A stretch of DNA of 64,000 bases from Alphaproteobacteria bacterium (GTDB taxonomy: Bacteria > Pseudomonadota > Alphaproteobacteria > SHVV01), in NCBI GenBank assembly GCA_965261735.1, contig OZ253470.1:2432001-2496000 (forward strand), in the 5' to 3' direction. Under the pieces are notes generated by a model. The model saw only the letters and a list, made by a program, of their open reading frames with translations, ran no database searches and was not told where the DNA came from. This document shows positions 51,778 to 57,496 of this stretch, piece after piece. Within the stretch, counting starts at the first letter, position 1. Each line of letters begins with the position of its first letter. The position numbers were made by a program, and so were the translations under genes.

Positions 51778-52668
51778 GAGCCCGCCTCCCCGCTACGCGA
51801 TTGTTGCCGATGGCGCGCCGGCAAGGCAAGCCGCATCGCCGGGCCAGCGCCGCGTGCTCAACGACGGATTGGCACCGCCTATGCCGCGGAGATCGTCAGC
51901 CCACGCCTTGGACGAATTCGGGAGAGCTCAGCCGTCGGCTACGGCCTTTAGCACTGCCGCTACCTCGCTCGGCGGCAGGCCCGCAGGGGCCTCGCTAGAG
52001 ACGGCGAGGAGGCGCGCCGGCAACTGATTGCCGCGGACCTGCGACCACGCGCGACCGAGCCGGAGTTCGGCAGGAGAAGGCACGACATCGACACCCAGTG
52101 CGAGCGCAACATAGAGGTGCCGGACCCGTTTGCTCTCCCTTAGCAGCACCTTAGTGTGTCGGACGTGGAAACATTCATTGTCCGTGCACGCTTTGAGCGC
52201 CTGATTGGTTGCCGGCATCCAGGCGCCATCGCCGGTCAGATTGACGCTGCCACCAGTGACCTTATCGCGCCGCCCGGTGGCTGTGGCGAGAAAGACATCG
52301 ATGACGCCGAGCGGGCCGCTGTACGACGCCAAGGTCGAGGAGGCGGCGCCGTGCGCGGTAGGTGCCCAATCCGTGTCATGAGGGTACCGCTGCCATCCCG
52401 CGAGGTTCGCCGGGAGAAGCGCGCTCACGGTGGCTTCCGCGACCGGCGGTTGGTCGTCGAGTACGTAAGGAGCCATCGCCGGTAGAGCTGCCGCGAGCAG
52501 CGCGTAAACCACGACCTGTGGTCGTCCTCTGCCGAGCCCCCGCCTAAGGCGCTGTGGCGTCTCGGCGCTTCTTTCCGGCTTCAACACTGCGACAAGCGCC
52601 ATCAACAGAAGAATGGTCGCCGCAAGTGCGGCCCATTGGAAATAGCTGTGAGTGAGTTCGAGCTGTGT

Positions 52669-54062
52669 GGTTGTGTCTCGAAAGTGGTGGAAATTGGTTT
52701 TGGCGCCTCTCCGAGCGGGTTGAGTTTTGCGGCGGTCAGGCTGCGCGGTCAAGGGTTTCGTCGGCGATTAGCTGATCGAGGGTTTCCCATCCATCGACTT
52801 TGCGCATCTGGATTTGGCCGGAAGCGAGGAGTGCCCAGAGGAGCATCGGCACTGTTTCGGGACACGGCAGCACGGTCTGTGTTTTGATCCGGCGCTTGAA
52901 CTCCTCGTTGAGACGCTCAATGGCGTTGGTCGTTCGGGCTGATTTCCATTGGCTCTTGGACAGGCGCGTGAAGGTAAAGAGCTTGTCGCCCGCTTCTGCG
53001 AGGCTGTCCGCGACGGCCCTGCATTTCAGCCGCCACTTGCGGACAAACGCCTTGCGGCGGGTTTCCACCTCGGAGGCAGTGTCGGCATAGATCATATCGC
53101 GGTAATCTTCGCTCAGCTCGTCATGCATGTGTTTGGGAGCATGACCCAGAAGGTTGCGGTGCTTGTGCACGGTGCAGCGTTGAACGGGAAGGTCATCGCC
53201 CCAAAGCGCCGACAGAGCCGCCTCCAGTCCCGGCGCGCCATCGACGATGACAAACCCGGGCCGTTTCAGTCCACGCGCATCAAGGTCGTCGAGGAACTGG
53301 CGCCACGCCGCCTGGCTTTCTCCGCCCATATTCCCGATCGAAAGCAAGACCTTCTGGCCATCCCGGCGCACCCCTATAGCCGCGAGAACCGAGATGTTGG
53401 TGGCCTTGCGGTCCAGTCGGGTCTTGATCACAGTGCCGTCAAGGATCAGCCGAACGATATCCTCATCCGCGAGGCCACGGCTGCACCAGGCGTCCCAATC
53501 GACCTTCACCTTGCGCCACGCCCGGCTCACAACGTCCTTGCTCACAGCACCCCGGAAGAGCCCGAACAGCGCGCGTTTCACCCGCCGCGTGTTGGTTCCG
53601 GACAGATACACCGAAGCGATCAGCGCCTCGGCCTTTCTGGTCAGCCGCTGGTAGCGCGGCAGCGCCCGCGAACGCCATTCCGACGCCCGACCGTCTTCCT
53701 CAACGATCCGCGCACGCGGCACGCTCACCCTCTCGGTCCCGAATGTCCCCGTCAGTTGCCGCTCCCGGTGCCCGTTCCGATACCCTTGCCGAAGCGCGTC
53801 CTCTCGACCGTATCGGCAGCGCCCGAGAAACTGCGCAAGTTCCTCCTCAAAAACGGCCTCGATCGTGGATCTGATGTTCTCCCGCAGCCGGTCCTCGAGC
53901 GGATCATAGCCGGCGTCATTGGCCAGTAGCGAAAGCGCGGAAGTCTCGGTAGTGTTCTTCATGGCGTGATCTCCTTGGCGGTGCTAGCCGCCGATTGGGT
54001 GGTTGTCTTGTCACCCGGAGATTACGCCATCCTCAAATTTCCACCACTTTCGAGACACAGCC
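52669..54062 (-). mobile_element. IS256-family element (1394 bp)
   Basis: IRs GGTTGTGTCTCGAAAGTGGTGGAAATT / AATTTCCACCACTTTCGAGACACAGCC; 9-bp TSD GAGCTGTGT at 52660-52668 and 54063-54071. Confidence 0.96.
52736..53962 (-). CDS. IS256-family transposase
   Basis: GYRNG, LILDG, IVDGAPGL, QRCTVH, RTTNAIERLNEEFKRR motifs. Confidence 0.96.
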   Translation of the reverse strand: MKNTTETSALSLLANDAGYDPLEDRLRENIRSTIEAVFEEELAQFLGRCRYGREDALRQGYRNGHRERQLTGTFGTERVSVPRARIVEEDGRASEWRSRALPRYQRLTRKAEALIASVYLSGTNTRRVKRALFGLFRGAVSKDVVSRAWRKVKVDWDAWCSRGLADEDIVRLILDGTVIKTRLDRKATNISVLAAIGVRRDGQKVLLSIGNMGGESQAAWRQFLDDLDARGLKRPGFVIVDGAPGLEAALSALWGDDLPVQRCTVHKHRNLLGHAPKHMHDELSEDYRDMIYADTASEVETRRKAFVRKWRLKCRAVADSLAEAGDKLFTFTRLSKSQWKSARTTNAIERLNEEFKRRIKTQTVLPCPETVPMLLWALLASGQIQMRKVDGWETLDQLIADETLDRAA

Positions 54063-54835
54063 GAGCTGTGTTCCGTGGACATAGTCGGTCGCAACGATTG
54101 CCACGACCCGTATGGCGTTCGCCAAAATGCCGAGGACGCCACCGGCGAGGGTAAGCGCGATGATTCGGCCCTCGCTGCGATAGAGGAGTAGCGCGAACGT
54201 GAGGCCGAGGAACAGGCCAACAAGAACGAACGGCAGACCCGCACAGGAATCCACGACGACGTAGCGTTGCCCGTCGAAGTAAAGCGAGAAGCCCTCTCTC
54301 GCGAACGGGAGCCCCGACACGTACGCGAACCCTTCAATGAAGGCGACGGTCAGCCTCCGGAGCGGGAGGAGAAGGAATTCTCCGGTCGGGATCACGAACG
54401 CCAGCAGCGCCAGGAAGGGCAAGAGACGCCGGAACACCTGCCATCCGACGGCGGCCATGACGATCGCGGCAACGGACCCAACGAGCGCAACCTGGCGCCC
54501 TTCCGAGACGTTCAACACGTCGGCGGCGAGCCAGAGAAGGGCAGCCAACGTCGCTGCCGCGACGCCAATCAGGTTTGCCGCGGGCGACGTCGCGGCCAGG
54601 CGCCTCCGGCTGTACCACAGCACACAGCCGAGCGTCGGCAGGACGGCCCAACCGTACTGGTAGGTGGTACTGCTGGCCCACGTTCCGCCGATCTCGATGA
54701 CCGTGGGGGCATGAGCGCCGAGCACGCCAGCGATGCCGAGGGTGACGGCGACCAACGCCGGAAACCAGGGATGCCGCACGAGTGAGCGTGCGTCCCAGCC
54801 GGCGAGCACGGCGCCATCGTGGCGCGCGGCGATAC

Positions 54836-55684
54836 TCATGATGCGATCTGTCTTCCACCGCCCGGCGCGGTGAGGGGCGCAGGCGGTCGCCCTTGTCTGG
54901 GCAAGAAGGGCAAACACAGCACCCGGTCGAGGCGGGCGGAGCGGTTGTCGCGAAAGGCCTCGAGGCCCAGGACTCGCGCACGATCGGCGTTCTCGTTCGA
55001 GCCGCAATACGTTTCGAACATCCGGTCCCACAGCGAAAGCACGATGCCAAAGTTGCTATCGGTTTCGCGCTGTTCTGCGGAATGGTGAACCAGGTGGACG
55101 GCGGGCGTTATCAGCGCCGTCCGGAGCGCTCGGTCAAGCGCGTCCGGTAGTCGGATGTTGGCGTGGGTCAAAACGGAAAATACGCCGGCAATCAGCATGT
55201 ACACCCCAACCGCCACGGGCGGGACGCCGCCCACGAAGACCACCAACAGAAAGCCGCCCGCGCCCACCAGGATCTCGAGCGGATGGTGGCGTTCCGACGT
55301 CGTGAAATCGACATCAACGTCGGCGTGGTGAACCACATGGAATCGCCAGAGGATCGGGACCACATGTAACAACCTGTGCTCAGCGTACTTCCAGACGTCG
55401 AGCAACAGTACGCCGAGGACGATCGTCACCGCCGCCGGTAGCGAGCCGACCGACAGGAGACCGAATCCCTCGTGCGCCGCCGCGTACGCCACCGCAAGCC
55501 CCGAGACCGGCACGATTAGCCGGATACAAAGCTGTCCGATCAGAAAAAGCCCGATGTTGGTGAGCCAGCGTCGGCCCAGGCTTATCGTCGACTGGCGCCA
55601 CGGGGCCACGGTCTCTGCGACCGCGAACGTCACGATAGCGCCGTAGAATGCCAGCATGGCAAGCAACGTCAGCACTTCGGCCAT
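54836..55684 (-). CDS. Sterol desaturase / fatty acid hydroxylase family membrane diiron enzyme
   Basis: His boxes HRLLH, HVVHH, RHHP.E, HAN, HLVHHS and NFG..LSLWDRMFET; ATGA overlap with the exosortase start. Confidence 0.92.
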   Translation of the reverse strand: MAEVLTLLAMLAFYGAIVTFAVAETVAPWRQSTISLGRRWLTNIGLFLIGQLCIRLIVPVSGLAVAYAAAHEGFGLLSVGSLPAAVTIVLGVLLLDVWKYAEHRLLHVVPILWRFHVVHHADVDVDFTTSERHHPLEILVGAGGFLLVVFVGGVPPVAVGVYMLIAGVFSVLTHANIRLPDALDRALRTALITPAVHLVHHSAEQRETDSNFGIVLSLWDRMFETYCGSNENADRARVLGLEAFRDNRSARLDRVLCLPFLPRQGRPPAPLTAPGGGRQIAS

Positions 55685-55764
55685 CGCGCCCTCGTGACCC
55701 CCCTACGAAGGACGAATACCGCTTTTGTGAGCGCTATCGTGCCTCGGATGCGGAGCTAGCCGAA

Positions 55765-55972
55765 CTACCGTTTGCGGCGAATGAGCCAAGCCCCGCCAAT
55801 GACGCTTGCAGCGACCAGGGCGATGAGACCGCCTCCCGCAATTGGCAGCGACGTACCGAGGGGGGGCGCTGAGCGACTGACCCAGCGGGACTGCGTTGCC
55901 GGCCAAGGCGGCCGATATCGTGGTCGCGAGCACGGCCGCGGCCGATCCGCATGAAACGACGAAGCGATGCAT
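55765..55972 (-). CDS. Cryptic 68-aa secreted micropeptide with CTERM-like sorting signal (+1 frameshift in a G7 tract)
   Basis: GGAGGT RBS. Removing one base at 55860-55866 gives MHRFVVSCGSAAAVLATTISAALA-GNAVPLGQSLSAPLGTS-LPIAGGG-LIALVAASVIGGAWLI-RRKR*. Confidence 0.72.
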
Positions 55973-56138
55973 CTTGGACCTCCATCTTCTCGCTGCTTGA
56001 GTGCCTTTGCACTCGTACCCGGTTTGCTTAGCATGGCCGTGACGTGGCGTATGTGATGGGCGTTACACCGCGCCCGGGCCGGAGGACGGCGAGACGGCGG
56101 CCACAATGGGCCGATAGGGCAGCCGTACAGCGCCCGCC

Positions 56139-56537
56139 CTAGTGCATGGAGTCCTCATACTCCTCCTCGGGTACGGGCTGGGTCGTGGGGCCGGCTTGGT
56201 GGTGGACCATTTTCCAGCGCCCGCCCTCGAGCACGAAGATGTTGGTGGCGATCAGGAAGCCGCTGCCGATGTGCTCGTGGCAGATGACGAATGCGCACGC
56301 GCCCTGGAGCAACGCGCGCGCATTGTGGCAGGTAATGGCGGGGGCGCCGCCGCCGCCGAGAATCCGCCGCCAGCTCGCCATCACCTGGTCGCGCCCGGTC
56401 AGCGCGTTCCAGCCGGGATGGATGCAGGCGACGGGGGCCTCCGCGGCCCAGACCGCGTCCATCGCCGCCGAGTCGCGATCGGCGAAGGCCCGGTAGAACG
56501 CCTCGTTGGCAAACAGAACCGCCTCGTGCTCGGCCAT
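56139..56537 (-). CDS. NTF2/SnoaL-like protein
   Basis: ANEAFYRAF, CIHPGW..L.GR, ATNIF, WKMVHHQ motifs. Confidence 0.9.
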   Translation of the reverse strand: MAEHEAVLFANEAFYRAFADRDSAAMDAVWAAEAPVACIHPGWNALTGRDQVMASWRRILGGGGAPAITCHNARALLQGACAFVICHEHIGSGFLIATNIFVLEGGRWKMVHHQAGPTTQPVPEEEYEDSMH

Positions 56538-56761
56538 GCCGGCCCCTCCGTCGCCCGCCCCGCGGTAGCGGCATCCCACTTCGTCCGAGCTGGCGTTGTG
56601 CGCGGATGGTACGCGCGCGCGGCCCTGCCCTCAAGCATGGCCCGCGCCGGCCGCCTCCACTTAAAAGCTTGACAGTAGACACAAGATTTTGGGTATATAC
56701 CGCGTGGCGCTACTAAACATGCCATTGTTAGGTAGCGTAAACGATGAATTGGGGGATTCAA

Positions 56762-57001
56762 ATGCCAGATTGGCTGGATCGGATTAAGAGGGGCGTCGGC
56801 TCGTTGACCGAGCTGGTGCTCTTGTTGGCTGCCTTGGCGATTGTGTTCCAGGTGTTGATCGGCCAAGGGAACATGTGGATCTTTGCCGACGTGATCGGGC
56901 ACCTAATGGACATCATCACCCAGATTGGTGATCGAGGCATCGTTGGCTTGATCGCGGTTGCCGTCGTGCTGTGGCTATTCAGCAGACGAACCATGTCCTA
57001 A
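56762..57001 (+). CDS. Small membrane protein, paralog 1 (79 aa)
   Basis: Hydrophobic helices; aligns end to end with 57257-57496 (MPDWL, QVLIG..NMW, G.VGLIA). Confidence 0.8.
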   Translation: MPDWLDRIKRGVGSLTELVLLLAALAIVFQVLIGQGNMWIFADVIGHLMDIITQIGDRGIVGLIAVAVVLWLFSRRTMS

Positions 57002-57256: not shown

Positions 57257-57496
57257 ATGCCTGACTGGCTCGGCGGGTTTAGGAAAGGGATCGGTTGGAC
57301 GATCGAGATCATCGTTTTGGTGGTGGCTCTCATCGTCGTCCTTCAGATTCTCATCGGCCCGGAAAACATGTGGGTGCTCGCACCCGTCGTCACCAACCTC
57401 ATCGACTTGTTCAACCAGCTCGGCGGAGCCGGTGTGGTCGGCTTGATCGCACTCGCCGCCGTGATCTGGGCCTTCGGTCGGCGGCCCGCAAGCTAA
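57257..57496 (+). CDS. Small membrane protein, paralog 2 (79 aa)
   Basis: GGGAG RBS; same length and motifs as paralog 1. Confidence 0.8.
   Translation: MPDWLGGFRKGIGWTIEIIVLVVALIVVLQILIGPENMWVLAPVVTNLIDLFNQLGGAGVVGLIALAAVIWAFGRRPAS

Follow-up and report, generated by a model that had tools for sequence, protein, structure and literature searches.

A putative exosortase cassette with a mini-peptide target and a membrane hydroxylase, present as a decayed copy in an alphaproteobacterial genome

Organization of the locus

The 64,000-nt stretch of DNA analyzed here (hereafter the window, whose positions are used unless stated otherwise) covers positions 2,432,001 to 2,496,000 of contig OZ253470.1 (assembly GCA_965261735.1), the 5.03-Mb single-contig genome of an alphaproteobacterium. 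Three co-oriented genes, all on the minus strand, encode a micropeptide, a membrane hydroxylase and an exosortase, and together form a putative sorting cassette. The following features were distinguished within this region:

55765..55972, minus strand: micropeptide gene, 68 codons in its intact form, frameshifted in this assembly
55860..55866: homopolymer of 7 G (7 C on the coding strand), in which an extra base causes the micropeptide frameshift
54836..55684, minus strand: membrane diiron enzyme of the fatty acid hydroxylase / sterol desaturase superfamily, 282 aa, intact, with complete His boxes
54062..54839, minus strand: 5' part of the exosortase gene, encoding the catalytic Cys199, Asn241 and Arg244 (PF09721, 129.7 bits)
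52669..54061: insertion sequence (IS) of the IS256 family, 1393 bp, splitting the catalytic triad of the exosortase between Arg and His
52736-53962, minus strand: transposase of the IS (NF033543, 270 bits; cut-off 150)
52659-52668 and 54062-54071: two copies of a 10-bp target-site duplication, CGAGCTGTGT, found by repeat analysis
51928..52668, minus strand: 3' part of the exosortase gene, encoding the conserved His (..THSYFQW..), two further helices and a periplasmic EpsI-like domain (DUF3485)

An earlier, sequence-only reading of this DNA had described three co-oriented genes with an ATGA overlap between the desaturase (referred to here as the hydroxylase) and the exosortase, and this arrangement was confirmed: the minus-strand sequence at 54839-54836 is ATGA, the ATG of the exosortase gene overlapping the TGA stop codon of the hydroxylase gene. 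The micropeptide gene is separated from the hydroxylase gene by a spacer of 80 nt. It starts with an ATG at 55972, with GGAGG placed 7 nt 5' of it, and changes frame within the 7-base run; the second frame, PLGTSLPIAGGGLIALVAASVIGGAWLIRRKR, ends with ...LIRRKR at a stop codon at 55765-55767. With one base fewer in the run, the gene comprises 207 nt (68 aa and a stop codon), exactly the length reconstructed in the sequence-only reading. The anatomy proposed there is likewise found in the sequence, in the order (i) signal peptide (..ALA/G), (ii) a 17-residue core with two PLGxSL units, (iii) the motif LPIAGGG, (iv) a membrane helix and (v) RRKR. Promoter and terminator scans gave no signal beyond chance at the locus, and the predicted fold of the peptide-hydroxylase spacer was not above chance (z = -0.6).

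The two lesions and their intact alleles

The exosortase gene is interrupted after 256 codons and resumes in frame at 52668. The interrupting element was assigned to the IS256 family by its transposase profile, inverted repeats of 27 nt (52669-52695 and 54036-54062), the 10-bp duplication and an empty site seen in three sequencing runs. It separates Cys199 and Arg244 of the exosortase from the His of the triad. Removal of the IS together with one copy of the duplication leaves the exosortase in frame, as a gene of 1509 nt encoding 502 aa. The "repair" of the exosortase assumed in the sequence-only reading thus corresponds to an in-frame natural allele, but the cause of the break is the IS256-family insertion and not a mere split in the track of open reading frames (ORFs).

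Logan contigs of four runs were compared with the window over 51800-56200. Three of the runs (X5, X6 and X8, from three other studies) contain a contig that spans the locus and differs from the window by 6-7 substitutions over ~2.1 kb. These contigs skip 52659-54061 exactly, i.e., the IS and one copy of the duplication, whose 10 letters fit on either side, and they are one base shorter at 55860 (3 of the 4 runs), which gives a single micropeptide frame. The sister strains, having neither the IS nor the extra base, thus carry an intact 502-aa exosortase-EpsI protein and an intact 68-aa peptide, and both repaired genes are natural alleles. The fourth run (X1) matches the window but probably represents the sample from which the assembly was made. 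Read from its sequence, the strain represented by the window is a double knock-out in which the cassette is inactive.

The genome contains 37 full-length copies of the IS, 36 of which are 100% identical. The insertion into the exosortase gene is therefore part of a recent expansion of the element. Words of the IS reach depths of hundreds to thousands in all four runs. A protein 99% identical to the hydroxylase is encoded on a contig of 5,000,832 bp, ~31 kb shorter than the genome studied here; fewer IS copies in that sister strain would fit the difference in size. Near-identical DNA of the locus was detected in 19 runs (X1-X19, each with at least half of the sampled words), registered under several different organisms, and any part of the locus in 20 rows from 10 studies; an RNA run (X20) contained 7% of the sampled words. 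Given the several organisms named for the 19 runs, the bacterium therefore occurs alongside varied hosts or samples.

Placement of the exosortase

The 5' part of the gene encodes a member of the exosortase/archaeosortase family, with scores above the cut-offs of PF09721 (25.7 bits) and TIGR04178 (27.4 bits; cut-off 23). Cys199 and Arg244 do not vary among 58 relatives, of which at least 90% also have the His. The 3' part corresponds in alignment to the C-terminal half of full-length relatives (496-523 aa). Its periplasmic domain reaches 36.4 bits with PF11984 (cut-off 26.1) and 25.3 bits with TIGR02914, below the cut-off of 42.8 bits, and thus resembles EpsI without belonging to the curated equivalog.

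The protein does not fall into any named exosortase class. On the XrtA model (TIGR03109, cut-off 208) the 5' part from the window scores 151 bits, and full-length exosortases of the same clade score 130-181 bits, all 29 of those tested lying under the cut-off. The next-ranked proteins outside the clade are true XrtA proteins in 18 of 21 cases tested (248-352 bits on the same model). The cut-offs of the other named classes (XrtB, C, D, N, Q, V and W; CrtA, B and C) were not reached either, the best being XrtW with 68-140 bits vs. 425. These scores indicate that the clade exosortases form a group of their own.

A second exosortase-family gene was not found in the 5.03-Mb genome with three different queries. 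None of seven genomes of the same family gave any exosortase match, and the cassette thus looks acquired.

Conservation of the cassette and fusion of the enzymes

The same gene order was identified in Gemmatimonadota, Betaproteobacteria and Gammaproteobacteria as well as in metagenomes from soil and mats. When an alignment of 10 exosortases was used to scan metagenomes, 19 loci were recovered and evaluated by tblastn and ORF inspection; a hydroxylase lies directly upstream of the exosortase or is fused to it in 16 of the 19, while for L099 its presence could not be judged, as the contig ends there. Three additional loci, found through the hydroxylase (L007, L016 and L019), encode a single protein of 769-776 aa that combines the hydroxylase, the exosortase and the EpsI-like domain. 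In each case an ORF of 69-81 aa precedes the fusion and combines a signal peptide with Gly/Leu-rich repeats, LP[IV]xxG, a helix and RRKR-type residues. Collecting loci through both the exosortase and the desaturase and looking upstream for the small ORF had been proposed in the sequence-only reading, and this search found a micropeptide wherever 250 nt or more were available upstream of the hydroxylase (16 of 16 loci, counting the three from genomes).

Of 18 loci, 13 encode the two enzymes as one fused protein and five as separate proteins. An exhaustive HMMER search with the exosortase part gave 60 cluster representatives at E < 1e-30, and in 19 of these the exosortase match starts 150-295 residues into the protein; the His boxes, Cys458, Arg503 and His523 are invariant in the 19 fused proteins. 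Solved structures gave no sequence match to the fused hydroxylase-exosortase family at E <= 0.01. One further protein, P0028 (484 aa), is a hydroxylase-exosortase fusion with a shortened exosortase part, and may be decayed or mis-called.

No fourth conserved gene was found around the cassette among 25 flanking ORFs of nine loci. The flanking genes vary between loci, and the unit is therefore self-contained. The closest metagenome relative of the exosortase from the window is that of locus L086 (53% identity).

The peptide family and its sorting tag

An alignment of 16 peptides (that of the window and 15 homologues) revealed a common order of elements: a signal peptide, xxLG units, a tag, a helix with an invariant Gly and a basic end, R/K-R-K-R/K. 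The tag, [ST]xLP[IFV]x[GE]GG, stands directly against the helix with no spacer. The number of xxLG units ranges from none (L086) to about nine (L093), and the length of the core from ~8 to ~45 residues; in the L086 peptide (L086:352-522) only a few residues lie between the signal peptide and the tag. The peptide features track three subclades of the hydroxylase, as expected for co-inheritance.

A peptide profile matched 17 linked loci (E <= 1.6e-9), 15 of which were in its training set, whereas 81 other loci gave no match at E <= 0.1. A simple filter for the tail, which the profile replaced, had overlooked the peptides of two loci (L007 and L016) and let three noise ORFs through. When the profile was built without the window row and run against the six frames of the genome, it matched the micropeptide of the window (E 3.3e-10), the next match having an E-value of 0.094. 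As this is the sole place matched at E <= 0.01, the tag therefore marks a single target in the genome.

The claim that the motif lies outside the known CTERM classes held when the tail was tested against curated models. None of the 16 peptides reaches the cut-off of any CTERM model of NCBIfam release 20, and none of 12 that of any Pfam model. The weak contacts are limited to GVDTG_CTERM (two of the 16 peptides, best 17.5 vs. 29 bits, covering the helix and the basic end only) and MamG (two of the 16, E 0.0016, below the cut-off). A search of the whole genome with TIGR02595 (PEP-CTERM) at E <= 1 gave 10 places, none of them at the micropeptide, and the same model had no match in the 16 peptides at E <= 0.05. 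The resemblance of the motif to the sortase motif LPxTG, also put forward in the sequence-only reading, proved superficial: the tag has no spacer before the helix, and Gram_pos_anchor (PF00746) gives 13.3 bits vs. a cut-off of 20 in one of the 12 peptides, which does not place the family among LPXTG anchors. In a language-model search, VPEID-CTERM and VPDSG-CTERM mini-proteins of 67-72 aa were among the nearest clusters of the peptide (0.90-0.91), a lead that would fit the idea of a cargo-less exosortase substrate.

The hydroxylase

The hydroxylase belongs to PF04116 (FA_hydroxylase; 101.6 bits, cut-off 31). Among 34 relatives, H103, H107, H116, H119, H120, H134, H174, H200 and H201 are invariant, and H197 is nearly so. 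By our reading of hydropathy and charge, the His boxes are predicted to lie at the cytoplasmic face of the membrane. The sole named NCBIfam model that matches the protein is OlsE (NF052566), with 69.5 bits for the hydroxylase and 88-112 bits for its fused relatives vs. a cut-off of 475, so that neither is assigned to OlsE.

A profile of the 34 relatives was used to collect the 80 best genome loci (32-46% identity), and an exosortase adjoins in only three of them (L007, L016 and L019); the hydroxylase by itself is a poor handle for finding the cassette. For phylogenetic analysis, 11 loci with a stop codon in the match and loci with matches shorter than 200 residues were left out. In the resulting tree (IQ-TREE, 83 rows), all 17 linked hydroxylases, most of them ascertained via the exosortase, form one clade (Shimodaira-Hasegawa-like approximate likelihood-ratio test, SH-aLRT, 97) apart from 65 unlinked ones, which make up a separate clade at ~40% identity. 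The neighbours of the unlinked hydroxylases (60 ORFs from 33 loci) are mutually unrelated and give no hint of a substrate.

The hydroxylase of locus L006 is the sister of the linked clade (support 100). Directly upstream of it lie two tandem mini-peptide genes (L006:1217-1393 and L006:1464-1643), whose products each consist of a signal peptide, a tag of the VPAPG/LPAPG type, a helix and a basic end. The 460 nt after this hydroxylase contain no exosortase, and the peptide profile has no match to the two mini-peptides.

About 0.8 kb from the micropeptide gene of the window, two tandem paralogous ORFs on the plus strand (56744-57001 and 57257-57496) encode small membrane proteins of 85 and 79 aa, both with ...MPDWL... 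and ...GQGNMW/GPENMW...; this pair was not seen beside the cassette at other loci.

Comparison with known sorting systems

The closest described counterpart is the XrtA/EpsH system with EpsI and PEP-CTERM substrates (TIGR03109, TIGR02914 and TIGR02595). The cassette shares with it the multi-helix core carrying Cys, Arg and His, the C-terminal fusion of an EpsI-like periplasmic domain, found in many XrtA proteins, and a three-part tail in which, as in PEP-CTERM substrates, the motif touches the helix. It differs in its tag (LP[IF]xGGG), in having one tiny target per locus where XrtA has many proteins, in lying outside a polysaccharide cluster, and in the enzyme of the fatty acid hydroxylase family that is coupled or fused to the exosortase. 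A divergent exosortase placed beside targets with a private tag is also known from NCBIfam classes that include the XrtC/VPDSG, XrtD/VPLPA, XrtE/VPEID, XrtH/IPTL, XrtV and XrtW systems; unlike these, the enzyme and the peptides of the cassette score under every class cut-off.

For archaeosortase A with PGF-CTERM and rhombosortase with GlyGly-CTERM, a 2023 preprint by Haft (10.1101/2023.06.07.544157) ties removal of the helix to a lipid-containing anchor, which served as the template for the anchoring proposed below. The tag of the cassette abuts the helix, as in PEP-, PGF- and GlyGly-CTERM domains. Archaeosortase A and rhombosortase, unlike the cassette enzyme, are of another subfamily or fold, act on large cargo and have no hydroxylase partner.

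The cassette hydroxylase has the same membrane diiron domain with His boxes as OlsE and other PF04116 proteins, but it stays below the OlsE cut-off and its clade lies apart from the 65 unlinked relatives. The core of xxLG units, with a Gly at every fourth residue, resembles glycine zippers. The sub-cut-off matches to Rick_17kDa_Anti (PF05433, E 0.087, one of 12 peptides) and MamG reflect compositional likeness only, and glycine-zipper lipoproteins and LG-repeat proteins are anchored N-terminally or by their own helices, unlike the cassette peptide. No paper combining exosortases with a fatty acid hydroxylase or a sterol desaturase was found; papers on exosortases and hydroxylases in general show nothing on such a link in title or abstract, nor do those listed for the exosortase literature since 2019. 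We conclude that the cassette is a real, conserved and uncurated variant of exosortase sorting systems.

Proposed function of the cassette

We consider it probable that the window holds a decayed copy of a self-contained cassette, which consists of an XrtA-like exosortase with a mini-peptide target and a membrane hydroxylase and lies outside the curated families. Most likely, its exosortase belongs to a new dedicated class whose product is a mini-peptide anchored at its C-terminus, and the hydroxylase would act on the lipid partner.

In the preprint cited above (10.1101/2023.06.07.544157), exosortases and archaeosortases are described as cysteine proteases with a Cys/Arg/His triad, and ArtA as needed both for removal of the helix and for addition of a prenyl-derived lipid, it being unclear for archaeosortase A whether cleavage and lipid attachment take place in one step or separately. 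To judge from its sequence, the 68-aa pre-peptide would be exported by Sec and trimmed by signal peptidase, and it would stay in the inner membrane by means of its C-terminal helix, the RRKR end facing the cytoplasm. The Cys/Arg/His site of the exosortase would then cut at the LP[IF]xGGG tag abutting the helix and, by analogy with archaeosortase A and rhombosortase, may join the short (xxLG)n peptide to an anchor in the membrane. The hydroxylase, translationally coupled to the exosortase here and fused to it in many relatives, would have a lipid as its substrate, be it the acceptor or the product linked to it. That the two enzymes are fused in a third of the clusters speaks for a shared target molecule or for successive steps. 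A more specific form of this model, which we put forward only tentatively, is that the hydroxylase-exosortase pair makes a ribosomally encoded peptide-lipid conjugate, the mini-peptide being transferred from its tag to a lipid that is prepared or finished by the diiron domain.

Several observations weigh against a dedicated three-gene cassette. The sequence-only reading had itself named homologous loci lacking the micropeptide or the desaturase as evidence to the contrary, and the outcome is mixed: the hydroxylase is present at most of the metagenome loci, but two of them, L086 and L092, have none beside the exosortase. In L086 the peptide directly precedes the exosortase despite the absence of an adjacent hydroxylase, while L092 has neither a hydroxylase nor a peptide in the available 278 nt. 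Several loci are near-duplicates (L093/L095, L088/L102, L094/L096 and L100/L103/L101), which leaves ~12 distinct lineages, and 16 linked loci were chosen via the exosortase, so that their frequencies are not population estimates. The hydroxylase tree comes from a quick search only. The variable core of the peptide may carry no function of its own. We know of no member of the hydroxylase superfamily that acts as a partner of a sortase-like enzyme. The occurrence of PEP-CTERM tails elsewhere in the genome, considered next, bears on the same question.

Alternative interpretations

The strongest competing explanation, which we regard as possible but doubtful, is that the exosortase is a general PEP-CTERM sorting enzyme that replaces XrtA, the micropeptide being one of its substrates, a helper or a primer. 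The genome contains ten PEP-CTERM matches over the TIGR02595 cut-off (nine at E < 0.01), several of them in ORFs of 356-442 aa, and no second exosortase. The enzyme may accordingly not be private to the micropeptide: of the dedicated exosortase postulated in the sequence-only reading, the class with its CTERM-like micropeptide and coupled diiron enzyme does recur, but its dedication to one peptide is not secure. Examples of the PEP-CTERM tails are located at 4246527-4246604, 1496871-1496945 and 2929348-2929422 of G000:C1. XrtA is also the best-scoring model for the clade, a PEP-CTERM match lies ~1 kb downstream of the fused gene in L016, and another genome (G041) has the fused enzyme only, together with one PEP-CTERM match; G041 is, however, a 2.6-Mb metagenome-assembled genome whose completeness is not reported. 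Against a general sorting role, two genomes (G042 and G043) carry a second, higher-scoring exosortase alongside the fused one, i.e., the clade coexists with an ordinary exosortase. In addition, the peptide and the hydroxylase travel with the exosortase clade and share its three subclades, and every clade member tested on the XrtA model missed the cut-off. Should the exosortase also serve PEP-CTERM proteins, the IS insertion may have orphaned all of them in this strain.

It is unlikely that the hydroxylase tailors the peptide itself, in the manner of ribosomally synthesized and post-translationally modified peptides, so that hydroxylation would affect Leu, Pro or the tail within the membrane instead of a lipid. 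The tight coupling or fusion of the enzyme pair, which comes with one small hydrophobic peptide, would suit such a role, as would the nearest named model, OlsE, albeit with a weak match (69-112 vs. 475 bits); OlsE hydroxylates the amino-acid head group of a lipid. However, the His boxes are read as cytoplasmic and the peptide core as periplasmic, and the substrate of the hydroxylase is therefore more likely a lipid than the peptide. The core is, moreover, poorly conserved and shrinks to a few residues in L086, and all members of the superfamily whose substrate is known to us act on a lipid.

A similarly low probability attaches to the idea that the micropeptide frameshift is an assembly error at a homopolymer, which would leave the IS insertion as the only real lesion of the strain. 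The frameshift sits in seven identical bases where three near-identical strains have six, but the window is matched from 54036 to 56200 without a gap by a contig of run X1 with a word depth of 6.9, an agreement that is not independent, this run probably being the source sample.

Finally, it is highly improbable that the small ORF is open by chance and that the three genes are neighbours with no function in common. A GC content of 65.7% makes long spurious frames common, but homologous peptides occupy the same position at 17 loci in several phyla and keep the order of signal, repeats, tag, helix and basic end. Many relatives have the enzymes fused, and none of the 81 control loci matches the peptide profile.

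Implications

In this genome, an expanding IS with 37 copies has disrupted the sole exosortase found and the peptide is frameshifted, whereas the sister strains keep both. Beyond this genome, the cassette adds a candidate exosortase class, a sorting tag and a hydroxylase subfamily, all without a name, which annotation pipelines now label only generically. To what exosortases attach their substrates is still an open question in the field. A sorting enzyme fused to a lipid-type hydroxylase and accompanied by a peptide of a few dozen residues offers a small and concrete test system, with two or three genes, a product fit for intact-mass analysis and clear catalytic residues. If the peptides of the cassette are indeed cargo-less substrates of 8-45 residues, they would constitute the smallest natural system in which to read exosortase transpeptidation by mass spectrometry. 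If the pair makes a peptide-lipid conjugate, the fused enzymes would mark the long-sought acceptor step of exosortases and define a new route to lipopeptides.

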